Shown: positions 5,538 through 61,787 of the stretch, in pieces
Numbering within the stretch: position 1 is the first letter of the stretch
Layout: each line of letters starts with the position of its first letter
Assembly (NCBI GenBank): GCA_019637795.1
Contig: JAHBUY010000003.1
Coordinates: 7,409-71,408, forward strand
Reading direction: 5' to 3'
Length of the DNA: 64,000 nt
Origin: a bacterium
GTDB lineage: Bacteria; Desulfobacterota; Binatia; HRBIN30; CADEER01
Position numbers and translations under genes: made by a program
The notes under the pieces: model-generated
Databases searched by the model: none
The model's input: only the letters and a program-made list of their open reading frames with translations
What the model was told of the DNA's origin: nothing

Positions 5538-7904
5538 CCTTCCGCGGCTGAACAGCCGCGGCCTCATTGAAGCGACGCCGGTCTGCGCCTGGTGGAGGAC
5601 AAGGTCCGCCCTTCCGCGGCTGAACAGCCGCGGCCTCATTGAAGCCTGCGCGGCCGCGAGATGTCGGTCCGCCTGATTCTCCCTTCCGCGGCTGAACAGC
5701 CGCGGCCTCATTGAAGCGTGATCGCGCCATCGACCCCGAGGATCCGCGCCAACGCCCCTTCCGCGGCTGAACAGCCGCGGCCTCATTGAAGCCTGCAGCC
5801 GTCCGTAGTCGAGGGCCTTCGCGTCGCCTTCCGCGGCTGAACAGCCGCGGCCTCATTGAAGCGCGGGCTTGCTCGCAATCCATGGTCCGCTGCGGCACCC
5901 TTCCGCGGCTGAACAGCCGCGGCCTCATTGAAGCGCGAAGAGCCGCCCCGGCGCCTCACTCCACAAGAACTCCTTCCGCGGCTGAACAGCCGCGGCCTCA
6001 TTGAAGCCCGATCTCGTGCGCTTCGGGCGGTATCGCGACACGCCGCCCTTCCGCGGCTGAACAGCCGCGGCCTCATTGAAGCACGCCCGGCGCGGGCGGC
6101 ACGGCCACGCCGAAGCCGCCTTCCGCGGCTGAACAGCCGCGGCCTCATTGAAGCACCGCCGCCTCGTCCGCCGCGCTCATCGCTGCACCTCCGCCTTCCG
6201 CGGCTGAACAGCCGCGGCCTCATTGAAGCGACACCTATCGCTTCGGCGTCACCAACGACACCTGCCTTCCGCGGCTGAACAGCCGCGGCCTCATTGAAGC
6301 ACCTGCTCGGGGCCCAGCTCGCCCAGAAGGCTCCCCACCTTCCGCGGCTGAACAGCCGCGGCCTCATTGAAGCTCGCGGCAACCGACGCGGATGGAGAGC
6401 ACGCCATCGCGCCTTCCGCGGCTGAACAGCCGCGGCCTCATTGAAGCCTCACCTTCGCCGCGCAGGGCATCTACGCGACGCCGACCTTCCGCGGCTGAAC
6501 AGCCGCGGCCTCATTGAAGCCACCCACCACAATCGGCGGTTCAATCCGCTAGAAAGGCCTTCCGCGGCTGAACAGCCGCGGCCTCATTGAAGCCGCCTGC
6601 ACCGCGACATGGGCGCGCGATGGATCGACCTTCCGCGGCTGAACAGCCGCGGCCTCATTGAAGCGAGCCAGCGTTGCGCGTTGGCGAAGCCGCGCAACGC
6701 CTTCCGCGGCTGAACAGCCGCGGCCTCATTGAAGCCTCCTCATAGATCCGCCGCGTCTCGGCCGGCAGCGTCGACCTTCCGCGGCTGAACAGCCGCGGCC
6801 TCATTGAAGCCGCGCACGCAAGCGCCGTCTGCCGCGTATCTCAATTATCCTTCCGCGGCTGAACAGCCGCGGCCTCATTGAAGCCTGCTCGGTGTCGTGA
6901 CGATAGCCGTCGATCGCACCCTTCCGCGGCTGAACAGCCGCGGCCTCATTGAAGCGCGCCGTCGAGGCTGGCGCCGACGAGGCTGGCGCGGACCCTTCCG
7001 CGGCTGAACAGCCGCGGCCTCATTGAAGCCTGGCAAGCTGACACGGACACTTACGAGATCGTCGACCCTTCCGCGGCTGAACAGCCGCGGCCTCATTGAA
7101 GCCAGCCCCCTCATTTCCGCTCCCTGAGTCACGACTCCCACCTTCCGCGGCTGAACAGCCGCGGCCTCATTGAAGCACGGTCACGCGCGGCCCATCCTTC
7201 TTGGCCGTGCCCGGCCTTCCGCGGCTGAACAGCCGCGGCCTCATTGAAGCCGGCCTACCCTGGCGGCCTCGATCTGCCCCACGGCTCCTTCCGCGGCTGA
7301 ACAGCCGCGGCCTCATTGAAGCGCGCGCTCGACCCACGGTACATCTTGGAGTTCACGGGGCCTTCCGCGGCTGAACAGCCGCGGCCTCATTGAAGCCAGA
7401 TTGTCGGTGAGGTGGTGTCGGGTCTCCGCACCCTTCCGCGGCTGAACAGCCGCGGCCTCATTGAAGCCAGCTCGGCGGCTTTCTGCTGCGCCGCGTTCTT
7501 GTCCTTCCGCGGCTGAACAGCCGCGGCCTCATTGAAGCAACAAGATAAACTTTACGTGCCAGTGGAAACTGAGGTACCTTCCGCGGCTGAACAGCCGCGG
7601 CCTCATTGAAGCAGCCTCAGGCGTTCCCACGTCGCGTCGCGCGAGCCACCCTTCCGCGGCTGAACAGCCGCGGCCTCATTGAAGCATCGCCGCCATCCCT
7701 CACCTCCATTCAAAAAGGGGCCGGCCTTCCGCGGCTGAACAGCCGCGGCCTCATTGAAGCGCTGCCACCGCTCTCACCACCGCTGACGAATGCGGCCTTC
7801 CGCGGCTGAACAGCCGCGGCCTCATTGAAGCCACTCGACGCTGGTGCAGGCAGACCTCGACCAGAAGCCCTTCCGCGGCTGAACAGCCGCGGCCTCAATT
7901 AGGT
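5538..7904 (+). CRISPR. CRISPR array: 33 repeats of 36 bp (CCTTCCGCGGCTGAACAGCCGCGGCCTCATTGAAGC) and 32 spacers of 34-39 bp. The last repeat is degenerate (…CCTCAATTAGGT).
   Basis: Repeat starts counted directly at 5538, 5610, 5682, 5757, 5827, 5899, 5972, 6047, 6119, 6194, 6265, 6338, 6412, 6485, 6558, 6629, 6700, 6775, 6849, 6920, 6994, 7067, 7141, 7215, 7287, 7361, 7432, 7503, 7577, 7650, 7725, 7796, 7869. The repeat has an internal 7-bp palindrome GCGGCTG/CAGCCGC and an ATTGAAGC 3' tail. Confidence 0.97.
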
Positions 7905-57546: not shown

Positions 57547-58209
57547 TCAGAGATGGGCGCCGAGGCTGGCGAGCGACACCTGCGCCCCGGCGTGGGCGGC
57601 GAGCAGGCGATCGACCGCCGCCGCATCGGGGCGGCGCAGGCATTCGAGGAGGTCCGAGGCCACCAGCGCGCGCAGGATGCGTTGCCGCTCGGCGCTGGGT
57701 AAGTCCCGCGCCTGCAGGTGGGCGCGCAGGCGGGCGAGGACGTCGAGCGCGCGCTCGTACTCGGGACCGAGCAGGCGGTCGATCTCGTCGCGGACCCGCC
57801 CGGCCAGGGCGGGGCTGCCGCCGCCCGTGGAGACCGCCACCGCGAGCTCGCCCCGACGCAGCACCGCCGGAACGATGAAGCGGCACCATTGCGGCCGGTC
57901 CACCACGTTCAGCAGCACGCCCGCCGCCTCGGCTGCCCGCGCCAGCTCGGCGTGCAGCGCCTCGTCGTCGGTGGCCGCGTAGGCGAGCCGGGCGCCGTCC
58001 AGGTCGCCGTCCTGGTACGTCCGGTGGAAGTGGCCGATCTCACCCCGCGCCAGCCGCTCGGCCAGACCGGGGGTCAGGGAGGGCGCCACCACCGTCACCC
58101 GCGCCCCCGCGGCCAGCAGGGACTCGACCTTGCGCTCCGCCACCTCCCCGCCGCCGATGACCACGCAACGCTCCCCCGCCATCTGCAGGAAGACCGGATA
58201 GTAGGCCAT
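57547..58209 (-). CDS. sirC: precorrin-2 dehydrogenase / sirohydrochlorin ferrochelatase (siroheme synthase N-domain, SirC/CysG-N)
   Basis: MAYYPVFLQMAGERCVVIGGGEVAERKVESLLAAGARVTVVAP is the Rossmann motif. The start was checked at 58209. Confidence 0.85.
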   Translation of the reverse strand: MAYYPVFLQMAGERCVVIGGGEVAERKVESLLAAGARVTVVAPSLTPGLAERLARGEIGHFHRTYQDGDLDGARLAYAATDDEALHAELARAAEAAGVLLNVVDRPQWCRFIVPAVLRRGELAVAVSTGGGSPALAGRVRDEIDRLLGPEYERALDVLARLRAHLQARDLPSAERQRILRALVASDLLECLRRPDAAAVDRLLAAHAGAQVSLASLGAHL

Positions 58210-58508
58210 TGCCGGACCGTAGCACAGGAGGCCGACGCGGCGCACCGAAGCCGCCGCCCGGGACCGCGGGCGTCTCGCCCGCACCGCAGCGCGCAACGTG
58301 CGAGCGCCGCCGCCCTTCCGCTCGTCCCCGAGCCGCTGTGCTGCGTATGCGTCGCACGCACGAGCAACCGATGATCACCAAGCGCGATCTGCGCATTGCG
58401 TGCCGGCTCAGCAGCAGCGCGGCGGGCGCCGTCGCCATCGCCAAGCCGGGTCGCCGCGCGAGACGCACCCACGCCGCAGGCGCCCGCAGCGGGACTCGCG
58501 CGCACGCG

Positions 58509-58775
58509 CTATGCCGCGCTGCCTGCCCTGGATCGCACCGATCGCCTCGGGGTGGCCCGTCTCGCCAGCGCGGCCACCTGGACGAGCGCCCGCAGCCCCT
58601 CGTTCACGGCCCGCGCGTTGCCGAAGTAGGGCCACAGCTCGGGGTCGACCACCACCGCATGCGCCTGGCGCGGGAAACGGGCGGCATAGCGTCCGCGGCT
58701 CGCCCTGCTCCAATCGTAGCGTTCGAGTGAATCCTCCGCCGGTCGCTTGCGGCGGCTAGCCGATGCCTTCTTCAT
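58509..58775 (-). CDS. brnA: BrnA-type antitoxin (DUF4415-like)
   Basis: ...YDWSRASRGRYAARF ... NARAVNEGLRALV follows the BrnA pattern. It overlaps the brnT 3' end by 20 nt. Confidence 0.6.
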   Translation of the reverse strand: MKKASASRRKRPAEDSLERYDWSRASRGRYAARFPRQAHAVVVDPELWPYFGNARAVNEGLRALVQVAALARRATPRRSVRSRAGSAA

Positions 58776-59043
58776 ATCTTCTCCTCTGCGCCGCGGACGC
58801 CTTCCGGGCGCTGATCAGGCGGATTCGCTCACCTCTCTCGGCGTGGACCACGAACAAGACGCGTTGTCGGGACGAGCAGCCGATGATCACGAAGCGGCTG
58901 GGAACGAAGCGATCCGGCGCATCGATCGCATTGGGGTCGGAGAACACGGTCAGCGCCTCCGGAAAGGACACCCCGTGCTTGACCAGATTCGCGCGCGCCT
59001 TGGCGTCGTCCCATTCGAAATCGCCATAGACCGCCCGCCCCAT
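58756..59043 (-). CDS. brnT: BrnT-type toxin (DUF497)
   Basis: FEWDDAKARANLVKHGVSFPEALTVFSDPNAI ... RFVIIG ... HAERGERIRLISARKA is the DUF497/BrnT signature. Confidence 0.75.
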   Translation of the reverse strand: MGRAVYGDFEWDDAKARANLVKHGVSFPEALTVFSDPNAIDAPDRFVPSRFVIIGCSSRQRVLFVVHAERGERIRLISARKASAAQRRRYEEGIG

Positions 59044-59152
59044 GCGCCCACACGCTATACCAGCGGCCCGCCGAGGCGAGAAACCGACATCGCGGCGGCC
59101 GAGCCGCGGCGGCGAGCCCATGCAGCCGACGGCGCCGCACGCCGGCAACCGA

Positions 59153-59515
59153 TCAGCGGCCGCCGATCACGACCGGCGCCCGGCCGCTGCCGAGCCGCAG
59201 CACGGTCCAGCCACCGGCCAGCGCCCGTTCGACCATGCGCGTCTCGCGCGCCAGGGAAAAACCGGCGGTCAGCGCGTAGCCGAAGCGCGGGATGCGCGCC
59301 GGGCGCAGGTCGAGGGCCCGTTGCGCCAGCAGGCGCTGCGGCCCGAGCAGCTCGACGTAGCGGCCCCGGCCGGAGCTGTGCTGGCGCAGCTCGCGCTGCA
59401 GCTCCAGCAGCTTGGACTCGGCGTCGATCTCGAAGGCCAGGGCGTTGAGCGTGTTGCGCTTGCTGCGCCGGCAGGCGCGGTAGTGCCGCCACAGGTCGGC
59501 GAAGGAGACGTCCAT
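59153..59515 (-). pseudogene. truncated reverse transcriptase (DGR/retron-type RT), N-terminal about 55 aa only, then unrelated sequence
   Basis: MDVSFADLWRHYRACRRSKRNTLNALAFEIDAESKLLELQRELRQHSSGRGRY matches the conserved N-terminus of DGR RTs (FxNLxxAxxxAxxGKR ... F ... LQxEL ... Y). No downstream RT motifs are found in any frame. Confidence 0.5.
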
Positions 59516-59570
59516 GGCAAGTGTGGCGGGCGCCGCCGGGGCGGCGCCCGCCACGGGGCCGATCACGATC

Positions 59571-59707
59571 CGCTACGCACGGCGCCAACGTAGTTGTTGT
59601 TGGTGCGGTTGTTCGCGTTCACGTTCCCATCGTTGAAGTTCGCGATCCACGCGTTGTCCGGATTGGGCGCGTAGGTAGTAGCAGACCAGTAGTTGTTGGA
59701 CTGCGTC
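59571..59707 (-). repeat. DGR template-repeat (TR)-like copy of the 3' end of the DUF1566 gene; extremely AAC-rich
   Basis: The coding-sense translation is TQSNNYWSATTYAPNPDNAWIANFNDGNVNANNRTNNNYVGAVRSGS*, with 12 AAC codons in 46. It is homologous to 60184..60324. It lies between the avd stub and the RT stub. Confidence 0.65.
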
Positions 59708-59723
59708 GCCCTCGCCGCTTGTG

Positions 59724-59893
59724 CCCGCCGCCGATGACCACGCAACGCTCCCCCGCCATCTGCAGGAAGACCGGGTAGTAGGCCATTGCCGGACCGTAGC
59801 ACAGGAGCCCGATGCGGCGCACCGAAGCCGCCGCCCGGGACCGCGGGCGTCTCGCCCGCAGCGCAGCGCGCAACGTGCGAGCGCCGCCGCCCT
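59724..59893 (-). repeat. 170-bp near-identical (about 97%) direct duplicate of the sirC promoter and first 21 codons (58147..58316), inserted where avd should be
   Basis: Base-by-base comparison gives about 5 mismatches in 170. It includes the sirC ATG copy at 59779..59781. Confidence 0.9.
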
Positions 59894-60057
59894 CGTTCCG
59901 GTTGCCTACCGAGGAACCTCCCGTCGCTTCGAGCTGGGTCGTCCCGACACGATCCGCGTGGAGGGCGCCGCTGGTCGGAGACTCCGACGGCGCTGCGCTG
60001 CGGGCGAGACGCCCGCGGTCCCGGATGGGTGCAGGGAGGTGGCGCAGGCCGACGCGG

Positions 60058-60120
60058 CTCGAAGTACAGGCAGAGATCGTAGGCGGCCTTGTAGATGGGA
60101 AGGTGCTCGCTCTGCGCCAT
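60058..60120 (-). pseudogene. avd: N-terminal stub (about 21 aa) of an Avd-like four-helix-bundle protein (PF05635 / 23S rRNA IVS family)
   Basis: MAQSEHLPIYKAAYDLCLYFE resembles the conserved N-terminus of four-helix-bundle/Avd proteins. The frame then runs into unrelated duplicated sequence. Confidence 0.45.
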
Positions 60121-60180
60121 CGGCCCGGTGTGGGGGGCTCCCGCCCCACACCCCCCCGTATCAAATGGTCCAATGATCGA

Positions 60181-61359
60181 TCACGAGCCGCTACGCACAG
60201 CGCGAACGTAGTAGCTGCTGGTGCGGCCGCCCAAGTCCACGTACCCATGGCCGAAGGACGGCAGCCACACGTAGAGCGGATCGGGCGCGGAGGTAGTAGC
60301 AGACCAATGGTGGCTGGACCGCGTGCACGAGCACGCCGCGTTCGTGATGTCGGCGCACGCAACGCCGCAGCTCCCGCCGTCGAAGGCCACGTCGACCACC
60401 GGCGGCGTGGTGTCGGCATAGTCGAGAATGCCCTGCAGCTCCTGCAGCCTCGGCACGCGCCAGTCGTTGTGGCCGGCGAAGTTGGCGCTGTTGAGATCGG
60501 CGGCCCAGGTCCAGATAGTGGTCGACTGGTTGCAGGTGCCGTCGCCGCCGGTGCACTCGTCGCAGCCGGTGGTGCCGCCCTCGGCGTTGGCGGCGCACAG
60601 CGTCGCCGCCGCCGCCGCCGGCTGGCAGAACTTGCTGGTGTTGACCGTGCAGGTGCCCGACCACGGGTAGTAGTTGTCGGCGTCGTGCGGGTTGGCGAAG
60701 TCCGGGTTGTAGTCGAGCTTGACCTTCTTCTCCCACTGCAGGCCGCTCTGGTTGTCGGTGACCGTCCCGTCGGCGTTGTCGGCGAAGCGGGCGTTCCAAC
60801 AGCCGCTGGTGTCGAAGACGCAGCCGCTGCCGCAGCGCAACACGCCCCCGACGTAGCCCTCGGTGGCGCAGGTGGCGCCGTTGAGGGTCCCCAGATCGCA
60901 CTGCTCGCCGCCGTCGATGGCGCCGTTGCCGCACAGCTCGGCGGCCACCAGGTCGGTCTCGCAGGTGTCGAGGTCGGTGGTGCAGGTGGTCAGCTCGTCG
61001 TTGCACTGCTGCACCGGCGGCGGCAGGCCGCCGCCGGCCAGCGCCGTCGCCAGCGCGTCGGTGTACTCGCCGATGAACGCCTGGATCGCCGCCTGGTCGC
61101 CGTTCGACGGGCACATGCCGCCGCCCGCCGCCTCGGTCTTGCCCCACTTGCCGGCGAATCCGGCGTCGCACTTCGAGAAGTCCGGCGCCCCGCCGCTCTG
61201 CGCCGCCTTGGCCTCCGCCTTCAGGCGGCAGAAGTCGTACTTGCCGGCCAGCTTCAGCTTGCCGGCCTGGCACTTCTCGGCCGGCGTCACCGCGCCAGCG
61301 CCGCCGGCGAGCGCCAGGCTCGCCAGGACAAACCCGTACCGCAGCAGATGTTCCATCGC
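60181..61359 (-). CDS. secreted/lipoprotein with Myxococcus-type cysteine-rich repeats and C-terminal DUF1566 (Lcl-like, C-type-lectin-fold) domain; putative DGR target protein
   Basis: Signal peptide MEHLLRYGFVLASLALAGGAGA. Repeats CGNGAIDGGEQCDLGTLNGATCATEGY ... CGSGCVFDTSGCW. DUF1566 motifs TVTDNQSGLQWEKK, NYYPWSG and DWRVPRLQELQGILDYA, ending ...HHWSATTSAPDPLYVWLPSFGHGYVDLGGRTSSYYVRAVRSGS. Confidence 0.75.
   Translation of the reverse strand, partial: AMEHLLRYGFVLASLALAGGAGAVTPAEKCQAGKLKLAGKYDFCRLKAEAKAAQSGGAPDFSKCDAGFAGKWGKTEAAGGGMCPSNGDQAAIQAFIGEYTDALATALAGGGLPPPVQQCNDELTTCTTDLDTCETDLVAAELCGNGAIDGGEQCDLGTLNGATCATEGYVGGVLRCGSGCVFDTSGCWNARFADNADGTVTDNQSGLQWEKKVKLDYNPDFANPHDADNYYPWSGTCTVNTSKFCQPAAAAATLCAANAEGGTTGCDECTGGDGTCNQSTTIWTWAADLNSANFAGHNDWRVPRLQELQGILDYADTTPPVVDVAFDGGSCGVACADITNAACSCTRSSHHWSATTSAPDPLYVWLPSFGHGYVDLGGRTSSYYVRAVRSGS
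60184..60324 (-). other. variable-repeat (VR)-like 3' segment of the DUF1566 gene (partner of the TR-like copy)
   Basis: Aligned with 59571..59707, there are about 33 differences in 137 nt. About 22 fall where the TR copy has A (coding sense), and every AAC codon of the TR is changed. A GC hairpin (60127..60152) lies 29-54 nt downstream of the stop. Confidence 0.6.
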
Positions 61360-61787
61360 GTTCCCCCTCCAGGCAGTGTCAGTGATCGCCGACCCGATGC
61401 CTCTCATCGGGCGCTCATCTTTCTCTCATCCAGCGTCGCGGGGAAGGCAACCTAGGGAAAACCCTGATCACCGCGAGAGCCGGCCGGGGATGCTCGAGCG
61501 TCGGTCGCGAGCCCGGGCGCTGCCGGGCGGTCGATCACGACGGTCACCTGGAGGACCGCGCCGGGGACGAGACGGTCGGCCAGGGCGCCGCGCCGCGTGG
61601 CCGCGCCGCACTCCGGGCGCGGTCGAACGGCAACCGCCGGCGGCGCCCGGCGGACCTGGAGACCCGCGCTGCGGCCCCGCCCCGCCCGCTGTCCCCCGCC
61701 GGCGGGCGAAAGGTTTGCCAACCCCCACCTGGCCTGGTACTGCTGCTCTTTAATTTTTGCCCCACCCCCTCATCAAAAGGAGAGCCT

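Follow-up and report, generated by a model that had tools for sequence, protein, structure and literature searches.

A probable degenerate chromosomal DGR that has lost its avd and RT genes but retains its template repeat and an intact DUF1566 target gene

The analyzed window, a stretch of 64 kb taken from a contig of at least 944 kb, very probably carries a degenerate chromosomal DGR that lost its machinery by ordinary decay of a known kind. Its descent from a DGR is indicated by two gene remnants and by cis elements that are homologous to those of an intact cassette and lie in the same order (loci L082 and L162, see below). Among the features of functional DGRs, the locus retains the adenine-biased pair of template repeat (TR) and variable repeat (VR) and lacks a catalytic RT, Avd and homogenization of the non-A positions. 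Both avd and the RT gene have been hit by deletions, which the original prediction had overlooked and which are the cause of the ended homogenization of the repeats.

Results

The best register between the TR (59706 to 59560) and the VR (60324 to 60178) is ungapped over 147 nt, with an offset of 618 (Table 1). The two repeats differ at 33 of the 147 positions, 22 of these differences lying at adenines of the TR, which account for only 40 of its bases (27%), and 11 at the 107 non-A positions. This mismatch spectrum (hypergeometric p = 4.9e-8) bears out the adenine-biased divergence initially claimed, and realignment with gaps does not remove the bias, since a gapped local alignment only adds a weak extra 14 nt upstream. 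The adenine-site differences fall at codon positions 1 (n = 11), 2 (n = 10) and 3 (n = 1), and the VR is devoid of AAC codons, as had been noticed, compared to 13 in the TR. The GGC/CGC and GCC/GCT differences reported near the 3′ end are also present, at 59586 and 59581, respectively. Three positions in the 3′ block of the VR do not match the TR, one of them being a GGC (VR) versus GGA (TR) difference; this fixed C versus A difference is also found in five relatives. By analogy, this block resembles the IMH of BPP-1 (Wu et al. 2018). At the other repeat, the TR and the RT ORF overlap, the GTG start of the latter lying in the 3′ end of the former (cGTGAtcg). Since the VR ends an ORF encoding a DUF1566/Lcl_C protein, remnants of RT and avd flank the TR, and the TR can be aligned with those of 14 intact DGRs from this family, the sequence supports the identification of this pair as the TR and VR of a DGR.

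Table 1. Positions in the window of the elements of the degenerate DGR and of the related sirC segments
Feature	Positions	Strand	Remarks
Source of the 170-nt duplication	58147..58316	-	Start and upstream region of the sirC-like precorrin-2 dehydrogenase gene
RT remnant, 137-aa in-frame ORF	59153..59566	-	tblastn with 17 full-length relatives (506-581 aa)
Template repeat (TR)	59560..59706	-	13 AAC codons; 100% identical in L163
Conserved TR upstream flank	59707..59731	-	25 nt directly upstream; alignment with 14 family TR regions and L082
170-nt direct copy of the 5′ end of the sirC-like gene	59724..59893	-	98% identical
Filler	59732..60056		Stands in for ~495 nt (rest of avd and avd-TR spacer)
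35-nt inverted copy of part of the sirC segment	59990..60024		Perfectly complementary to 59835-59869
avd remnant, codons 1-21 (MAQSEHLPIYKAAYDLCLYFE)	60058..60120	-	tblastn with L009 Avd
GC hairpin	60128..60153	-	Weakened form of the post-VR hairpin of the family
VR-hairpin spacer	60154..60177	-	Two 8-9-nt 'NNNTTTGA/TTGG' units
IMH-like 3′ block of the VR	60178..60212	-	35 nt, G+C-rich, beyond the last mutagenized site
Variable repeat (VR)	60178..60324	-	Last 47 codons of the target, stop codon and 3 nt beyond
Target gene, 391 aa, DUF1566/Lcl_C domain protein	60181..61356	-	ORF intact; Pfam Lcl_C 7.5e-22

The target protein is identical to NCBI MBX3025283.1 ('DUF1566 domain-containing protein [bacterium]') and, judging from its sequence, carries an N-terminal hydrophobic leader devoid of lipobox. 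Its Pfam Lcl_C/DUF1566 match, a class filed as CLec2 by Wu et al. (2018), spans the VR. It shares 64-66% identity with the target of the intact DGR of L082. A search of the PDB with the target gave no match, and a metagenome scan with the same protein found no same-strain locus, the best match being 66% identical. Neither a longer sister contig nor same-strain target fragments emerged from protein searches that used the target and the Avd of L162 as queries, and exact look-ups found neither the RT remnant nor the target on record. In public annotation, the genes of the locus appear only as 'hypothetical' and 'DUF1566'.

An intact cassette, with the order target-VR-TTTGA repeats-GC hairpin-avd-TR-RT, was found in 15 related loci. 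The window is collinear at the nucleotide level with one of them, L082, with the same order of elements and two gaps. The first gap affects avd: the Avd of L009 matches the window over its residues 1-21 (95% identity, E 1.4e-10), and no other match to the rest of Avd was found in the window by this tblastn search. The Avd proteins of the relatives match Pfam bAvd (2.2e-16) and NCBIfam DivGenRetAVD (6e-16). The similarity of the window to L082 and to the sister contig L162 ends at 60057; in L162, which matches the window up to this position, an intact avd continues exactly past the breakpoint. The filler found instead has no similarity to any related DGR. Its 170-nt direct copy includes 107 nt upstream of the sirC-like gene (ORF 57547-58296, Pfam NAD_binding_7 7e-32), the ATG and 21 codons, and meets the TR flank at a CGGCGGG microhomology. 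Only this copy and the 35-nt inverted one were accepted; additional matches of 11-13 nt between the filler and the sirC region were rejected because they were no more than in a G+C-rich background control.

The second gap lies inside the RT gene, where 1160 nt of L082 (4319-5478) are missing, in frame and at a microhomology. The RT remnant thus joins in a single frame residues ~1-57 (59566 to 59366) and ~431-495 (59365 to 59153), the latter belonging to the family-specific C-terminal extension. It carries none of the catalytic motifs ([I/L]GxxxSQ and YxDD regions), has no RVT_1 match and more generally did not match anything in Pfam, NCBIfam or the PDB. The RTs of the relatives match RVT_1 and carry GLPIGNLTSQ and YVDD; among solved structures, the closest to them is 8ub7_A (E 6e-40), which we take to be the bRT of BPP-1. 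A literature search returned nothing on PDB entry 8UB7 or on run SRR12908347, in which the sister strain occurs. The 64 kb of the window contain no other RT of the family, TR or VR, and Rfam gave no match at the locus. The locus is adjacent to a BrnT toxin gene (BrnT_toxin 1e-24) that does not belong to the DGR and which an 88-aa partner without any family match in Pfam or NCBIfam overlaps by 20 nt. Neither BrnT/BrnA nor sirC adjoins the DGR in any relative.

The comparison with the relatives supports the earlier proposal that homogenization of the pair has ended. The TR/VR pairs of the 15 intact relatives show 15-31 mismatches at A positions and 0-7 at non-A positions (median 1; the higher counts include seven in L018 and four in L017), compared to 11 non-A mismatches in the window. 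The curated set of DGRs of Wu et al. 2018 (PMC5758913) includes up to 11 non-A differences. The VR of L162 differs from the TR of the window at 23 A sites and three non-A sites, and this three-way comparison shows that, among the 11 non-A differences, eight occur solely in the VR of the window; four of these eight changes are located at positions that are invariant in all 14 family TRs. At the eight sites, which correspond to TR coordinates 59691, 59658, 59651, 59644, 59643, 59631, 59616 and 59615, the VR carries C, C, T, G, C, C, T and T, respectively. The two VRs differ from each other at 21 of 39 A sites versus eight of 107 non-A sites (p 6.5e-9). Between the window and L162, the stretch of 155 nt that runs from the VR 3′ block through avd codon 21 is free of substitutions, while the target gene diverges by 9.0%. 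Given this inconsistent drift clock, a simple dating of the eight private changes by neutral decay is not possible.

The spacer that follows the VR includes two repeat units in the window and three to four in the relatives, and is 16 nt longer in L162. Beyond it, the inverted repeat GGTGTGGGG / CCCCACACC (60153 to 60128) starts 28 nt after the last base of the TGA stop codon (60183 to 60181). It can be read in two ways: either the stem has 9 bp and the loop 8 nt, or the stem consists of 5+5 bp interrupted by a CC bulge and the loop is GGGA. The 9-bp stem and 8-nt loop initially described past the VR stop do exist, but they are actually a slipped version of the hairpin of L162, which has a perfect 12-bp stem and a GGGA loop. 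Two G are missing from the 5′ arm in the window and the hairpin is therefore weakened (-11.2 kcal/mol versus -18.0 for L162 and -20.9 for L082). When folded as had been suggested, the 38-nt hairpin has a z of -0.2 and its 91-nt context a z of -1.26, and when the 57-nt spacer was dinucleotide-shuffled 300 times, the stem of the window was equalled eight times. As an isolated fold, it is thus unexceptional for a G+C-rich sequence. Its significance comes rather from its position, conserved across the family: a GC-rich post-VR hairpin occupies the corresponding position in all 16 loci (15 relatives and L162), with 16 different stems. Since triloops are put out of register when the hairpins are aligned with MAFFT, pairs were counted from the loop outwards; this count is partly circular, and shuffle controls were therefore added. 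The homing hairpins described by Guo et al. 2011 (PMC3240598) have GC stems of 7-10 bp and 4-nt GRNA loops and lie 4-34 bp from the VR. The hairpin of the window lies within this range and where the family always has one, which supports its predicted location at the homing position, and it probably served homing. It was rejected as a canonical intrinsic terminator, and a search of 58100-60400 gave neither terminator-like nor promoter-like sites.

Discussion

The ancestral element would have had the order target gene-VR-TTTGA repeats-GC hairpin-avd-TR-RT and probably worked as BPP-1 does. Its RT and Avd would have copied the TR RNA into a cDNA, with random bases incorporated opposite template adenines. 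Replacement of the VR by this cDNA would have rewritten the AAC-encoded positions in the ligand-binding face at the C-terminus of a secreted DUF1566/Lcl_C protein. The machinery would subsequently have been lost through two deletions, located at short microhomologies. One would extend from avd codon 22 to 25 nt before the TR, its gap being filled by copies of the 5′ end of the nearby sirC; the other would have removed ~1.16 kb inside the RT gene, in frame. The VR is now presumably frozen and changes by ordinary point mutation only.

It is unlikely, although slightly less so than the other alternatives, that the TR/VR pair is a satellite that is still diversified by RT and Avd provided in trans by an intact DGR of the same family located elsewhere in the genome, the TR RNA possibly coming from the duplicated region upstream of sirC. 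The surviving cis parts (the TR with its 13 AAC codons, 25 nt upstream of it, ~195 nt downstream, the IMH-like block and the hairpin) are those that a trans-acting enzyme would need, and the family is abundant, with at least 653 Avd relatives at E <= 1e-20. Furthermore, components of BPP-1 function in trans (Wu 2018, PMC5758913) and such a service has been proposed for degenerate DGR loci of Thiohalocapsa (bioRxiv 10.1101/2023.09.22.558884). However, 11 non-A differences have accumulated, most of them private to this VR and some at positions otherwise invariant in the family TRs. The hairpin is weakened and has an 8-nt loop in its best register, whereas two added loop bases nearly abolish homing in BPP-1 (Guo et al. 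2011, PMC3240598). Besides, the window is devoid of RT and the duplicated sirC segment yielded no promoter-like site. We consider as a little more doubtful still that the deletions specifically spared the template RNA unit and the target-side signals, generating a non-autonomous satellite that is served by another DGR of the family in the genome and whose TR is expressed from the duplicated sirC 5′ region. If this were true, diversification would be tied to the regulation of a haem/sirohaem gene.

Differences in the length of G runs are a typical sequencing error. Those of the hairpin fit such an error, the filler oddly combines a patchwork of copies of a nearby segment, some direct and some inverted, and the sister L162 has an intact avd and identical flanks. 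Therefore, we considered that the filler, the duplication and the deletions could result from a metagenome assembly error at a locus that is in fact an intact DGR. This is very improbable: two Logan contigs (L163 and L164), each assembled independently from a different sequencing run, reproduce the window with 100% identity over the TR, the BrnT/BrnA genes and two junctions (sirC-copy/TR and RT deletion), which are thus independently confirmed. Both contigs stop 30 nt into the 170-nt repeat, which is the behaviour expected of a real repeat, and the RT deletion is in frame and at a microhomology. Finally, an ordinary partial duplication of the DUF1566 C-terminus without any retroelement history, suggested by the match of the translated TR to Lcl_C, has practically no chance of being correct, as it is refuted by the A bias (p 5e-8), confined to positions 1 and 2 of AAC codons, by the RT and Avd remnants flanking the TR, and by the alignment of the TR with those of 14 DGRs.

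The probable relic described here can be compared to three known systems. It shares with the BPP-1 DGR (mtd-VR, IMH, hairpin, avd, TR, brt) adenine-specific TR/VR differences, a VR located at the 3′ end of the target ORF, a conserved G+C-rich 3′ block, the avd-TR-RT order, an RT that, in the family, is homologous to that of PDB 8ub7, and, downstream of the VR and at a distance within the reported 4-34 bp (PMC3240598), a GC hairpin whose loop may be read as GRNA-type (GGGA here). In contrast to BPP-1, the element is chromosomal and not phage-borne, its target is a DUF1566/Lcl_C protein instead of Mtd, the TR of the family abuts the RT start codon, tandem TTTGA units separate the VR from the hairpin, and the RTs of the family (506-581 aa) have a C-terminal extension of ~180 aa without Pfam match; moreover, avd and RT are deleted in the window. 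The target has the same domain class as those of the DUF1566/DUF823/Fib_succ_major-target DGRs (category 'd', CLec2 VRs), such as that of LdtA from Legionella pneumophila, where the VR is likewise C-terminal in a protein that is secreted or exposed at the surface (Wu et al. 2018, PMC5758913). However, LdtA is described as a lipoprotein, whereas the target of the window has a hydrophobic leader and no lipobox. The closest parallel in terms of decay is provided by the 'degenerate' DGR loci of Thiohalocapsa PB-PSB1, in which the RT, the TR or the accessory gene is missing or pseudogenized while the target and the VR persist; these loci, too, may be relics or may be served in trans (bioRxiv 10.1101/2023.09.22.558884). 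Their decay has been attributed to transposons, whereas the locus of the window shows microhomology deletions and the duplication of part of a housekeeping gene, without any transposase adjoining it.

Overall, this locus illustrates how a DGR dies, with exact breakpoints and a near-identical intact sister: avd and RT were lost by short-homology deletions, while the diversified gene remained intact with its last variant probably frozen. Relics of this kind would escape RT-based DGR finders. Furthermore, the comparison set documents a large family of DGRs in uncultured Binatia- and Myxococcota-like genomes, characterized by a conserved post-VR hairpin, tandem TTTGA units and a long C-terminal extension of the RT, traits that could guide work on target recognition outside BPP-1.

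Results

An adenine-biased repeat pair at the end of a DUF1566 gene

All the relevant features of the locus lie on the minus strand. The two repeats align without any gap, at an offset of 618 nt, and differ at 33 of 147 positions. Twenty-two of these mismatches are found at adenines of one copy, in which adenine accounts for 40 of the 147 bases (p = 4.9e-8, hypergeometric), and the other 11 at its 107 non-A positions. The A-site differences affect codon positions 1 (n = 11) and 2 (n = 10) and, in one case, position 3. Furthermore, the A-rich copy contains 13 AAC codons compared to none in the other. The original prediction of about 33 differences, two thirds of them at adenines, and of a copy devoid of AAC is thus borne out. 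The biased mismatches and the AAC contrast therefore identify the template repeat (TR) and the variable repeat (VR) of a diversity-generating retroelement (DGR). The target corresponds to MBX3025283.1 at NCBI ("DUF1566 domain-containing protein [bacterium]"), carried by a 944-kb contig. DGR targets with DUF1566 are a recognised class (PMC5758913).

Coordinates of the features of the locus, its neighbours and its relatives (window positions unless a contig is named)
Feature	Position	Strand	Remark
Target ORF, 391 aa	61356->60181	-	Pfam Lcl_C/DUF1566, 7.5e-22
VR	60324->60178	-	last 47 codons of target ORF
TR	59706->59560	-	A-rich copy of the pair
Private window-VR sites (TR coordinates)	59691, 59658, 59651, 59644, 59643, 59631, 59616, 59615		
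TTTGA stretches	window 60154-60177; L003 5022-5066; L008 1270-1301; L082 3263-3304; L162 1711-1750		
Inverted repeat	60153->60128	-	28 nt past target stop codon
avd remnant	ORF from 60120	-	reads MAQSEHLPIYKAAYDLCLYFE, family Avd residues 1-21
Filler, 170-nt direct copy	source 58147-58316		98% identical; start of neighbouring sirC-like gene
Filler, 35-nt inverted copy	piece of 58147-58316		perfect
Chimeric sirC/TR ORF	59619-59786	-	start codon 59786->59784
RT remnant ORF, 137 aa	GTG start at 59566	-	start inside TR 3' end, overlaps TGA common to VR
RT residues ~1-57	59506->59336	-	tblastn, 17 family RTs
RT residues ~431-495	59365->59171	-	tblastn, 17 family RTs
BrnT gene and partner	58509-59148	-	BrnT: Pfam 1e-24
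CRISPR array	5826-7831	+	Rfam CRISPR-DR16
Relatives' palindromes	L082 4073-4155, 5722-5816; L006 5107-5186; L015 5948-5981		
Relatives' second VR-like copies	L004 1934-2083; L018 3081-3315		

Remnants of the reverse transcriptase and avd genes

The 137-aa ORF that starts within the TR has no match in Pfam, NCBIfam or PDB, but its first ~55 residues resemble the N-termini of proteins bearing DGR reverse transcriptase (RT) motifs. A genome scan with these proteins retrieved 80 loci, mostly from MAGs labelled Binatia, Myxococcota, delta proteobacterium or Dadabacteria. The RTs of this family (506-581 aa) match RVT_1 and contain GLPIGNLTSQ and YVDD; their closest solved structure is 8ub7_A (E 6e-40), whose sequence we take to be that of bRT from the Bordetella phage BPP-1. 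When 17 family RTs were compared with the window, matches were found at two places only, in one common frame. Relative to L082, the closest intact cassette, 1160 nt (L082 4319-5478) are absent, the junction lying at a short GGC-type microhomology. All catalytic motifs are missing, the C-terminal piece that is kept belongs to a family-specific extension past the bRT-alignable part, and the in-frame remnant has no further stops. In the related loci L002-L018 (for example L015 6001-7518), the RT genes extend ~180 aa past the region alignable with the 328-aa 8ub7 RT, without any Pfam match in this extension. Several public members of the RT family (L001 8001-8723 and proteins P0004, P0008 and P0014) are also truncated or frameshifted, and therefore RT decay seems to be common in the family.

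The avd remnant is 95% identical to the start of the family Avd (E 1.4e-10), which in intact relatives matches Pfam bAvd and NCBIfam DivGenRetAVD; the rest of Avd was not found anywhere in the 64-kb window. Homology with L082 ends at 60057 and restarts at 59731, 25 nt upstream of the TR, with 325 nt of filler where L082 has ~495 nt. Part of this filler derives from one segment that includes the sirC-like ATG, 21 codons and 107 nt upstream; beyond the direct and inverted copies, the remainder has no match. A CGGCGGG microhomology marks the point where the sirC copy meets the TR flank. Owing to the duplicated sirC start, the TR is now downstream of a duplicate of the sirC upstream region, and a chimeric ORF, probably meaningless, reads 21 sirC codons and then the TR in another frame.

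Directly past the RT remnant lie a BrnT toxin gene and an overlapping gene encoding an 88-aa partner that has no family match; such a pair adjoins the DGR in none of the relatives. Elsewhere in the window, a CRISPR array has 11 repeats (38.2 bits each), whose irregular spacing suggests more repeats below threshold.

Comparison with the DGR family and with a sister contig

The 15 related loci (14 genomic and L082) share one order: target gene, VR, TTTGA repeats, GC hairpin, avd, TR and RT. Their TR/VR pairs (~146 nt) show 15-31 differences at A and 0-7 elsewhere (median 1), compared to which the 11 non-A differences of the window are extreme, in agreement with the proposal that this pair is no longer homogenised. 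Two relatives carry second, more diverged VR-like copies (12 and 40 non-A differences) that may be decayed or untargeted paralogues. Palindromes of ~35-95 nt occur between TR and RT, and past RT, in some relatives; the window has none, its TR abutting the RT start.

The 90% cluster of the target includes one further protein, on the Logan contig L162 (SRR12908347, 2202 nt). Its match to the window begins at 61498 and breaks off exactly at 60057, beyond which L162 carries an intact 144-aa avd (bAvd) until its end. The L162 VR differs from the window TR at 23 A sites and three non-A sites. Eight of the 11 non-A differences are private to the window VR, L162 having the TR base, and four of these eight positions are invariant in all 14 family TRs examined. 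At the three others (59689, 59586 and 59581), both VRs agree, and only 59586 (G in the TR, C in 14/14 family TRs) can clearly be assigned to a change in the TR. Compared with each other, the VRs of the window and L162 are different at 21 of 39 A sites and at eight of the 107 non-A sites (p 6.5e-9, Fisher); this A-site hypervariability between lineages is as would be expected of DGR action. A 1-nt deletion in the L162 VR (~1655) shifts the frame of the last ~20 target codons, and could reflect either a genuine pseudogene or the misassembly of a hypervariable stretch.

Between the window and L162, the target genes are 9.0% divergent (93/1032), evenly and right up to the VR. However, the 155 nt comprising the VR 3' block, spacer, hairpin and avd codons 1-21 (window 60057-60211, L162 1711-1851) show indels only and no substitution. 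Therefore, the ancestor shared with L162 would be much younger for the cassette side than for the gene, which suggests recent recombination on that side or a contig chimeric at the hypervariable VR; faster change of the VR itself is a possible explanation requiring no recent shared ancestor. The deletions are therefore probably recent. The TR has kept all its AAC codons, just as the RT remnant is free of further stops. The eight private VR changes are not usable as a simple neutral clock.

A weakened hairpin downstream of the VR

A GC-rich hairpin is present in all 15 related loci, 32-76 nt beyond the point where TR/VR homology ends and 8-52 nt ahead of the avd ATG. The 16 stems, including that of the window, all differ in sequence and are all still paired, with loops often of GTGA or GAA-type triloops. 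Among 300 dinucleotide shuffles per spacer, the stem score of the real sequence was reached by 0-5 in 12 loci, by eight in the window and by 14-34 in L014, L006 and L012. In BPP-1, homing requires a hairpin with a 7-10 bp GC stem and a 4-nt GRNA loop, 4-34 bp from the VR, whose structure matters more than its stem sequence (Guo et al. 2011, PMC3240598); by analogy, the family hairpin would be compatible with such a role. A standard terminator was rejected, as no T-tract follows.

The hairpin proposed past the VR stop is present at the family position, in a weakened form. In L162 the stem is perfect over 12 bp and carries a GGGA loop (GGTGTGGGGGGC ggga GCCCCCCACACC), and the window has two G fewer in the 5' arm. 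The 9-bp stem and 8-nt loop initially described thus represent a slipped version of the family hairpin. This 2-nt difference in a G run could be a sequencing error. The DNA fold of the window (-11.2 kcal/mol, z -0.2) is weaker than those of L162 (-18.0 kcal/mol, z -2.7) and L082 (-20.9 kcal/mol, z -6.0).

Between VR and hairpin, the family has 2-4 tandem units of 8-9 nt, ending in TTTGA; in six relatives, their period of 8 puts a TGA into each of the three frames. L162 has four units; the window, 16 nt shorter there, retains two units and one TGA. As a guess, the units could serve as backup stops or as an array bound by a protein.

Discussion

Taken as a whole, these data make it very probable that the locus is a DGR deprived of avd and RT in cis, whose VR is frozen. 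Another DGR of the same abundant family could act on it in trans, and the surviving cis parts are what such service would require. This is nevertheless unlikely, given that private non-A changes of the VR affect TR positions invariant across the family, that the hairpin is weakened and that the 64-kb window contains no RT. An assembly error mimicking a rearrangement is less likely still. Two independently assembled Logan contigs, L163 (SRR12908356; 59753->58287) and L164 (SRR30849500; 59530->58287), match the window at 100%; together they span the sirC-copy/TR junction, TR, RT deletion junction, BrnT and its partner gene, which largely excludes an error at the TR and RT junctions, the avd junction and hairpin lying outside. 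Both end 30 nt into the 170-nt repeat, as a true repeat would give. Plain duplication can be dismissed in view of the A-biased differences and of the RT and Avd remnants.

Degenerate DGR loci have been described earlier (bioRxiv 10.1101/2023.09.22.558884). Since these and DUF1566 targets are already known, the locus very probably represents a further degenerate DGR of a known type.
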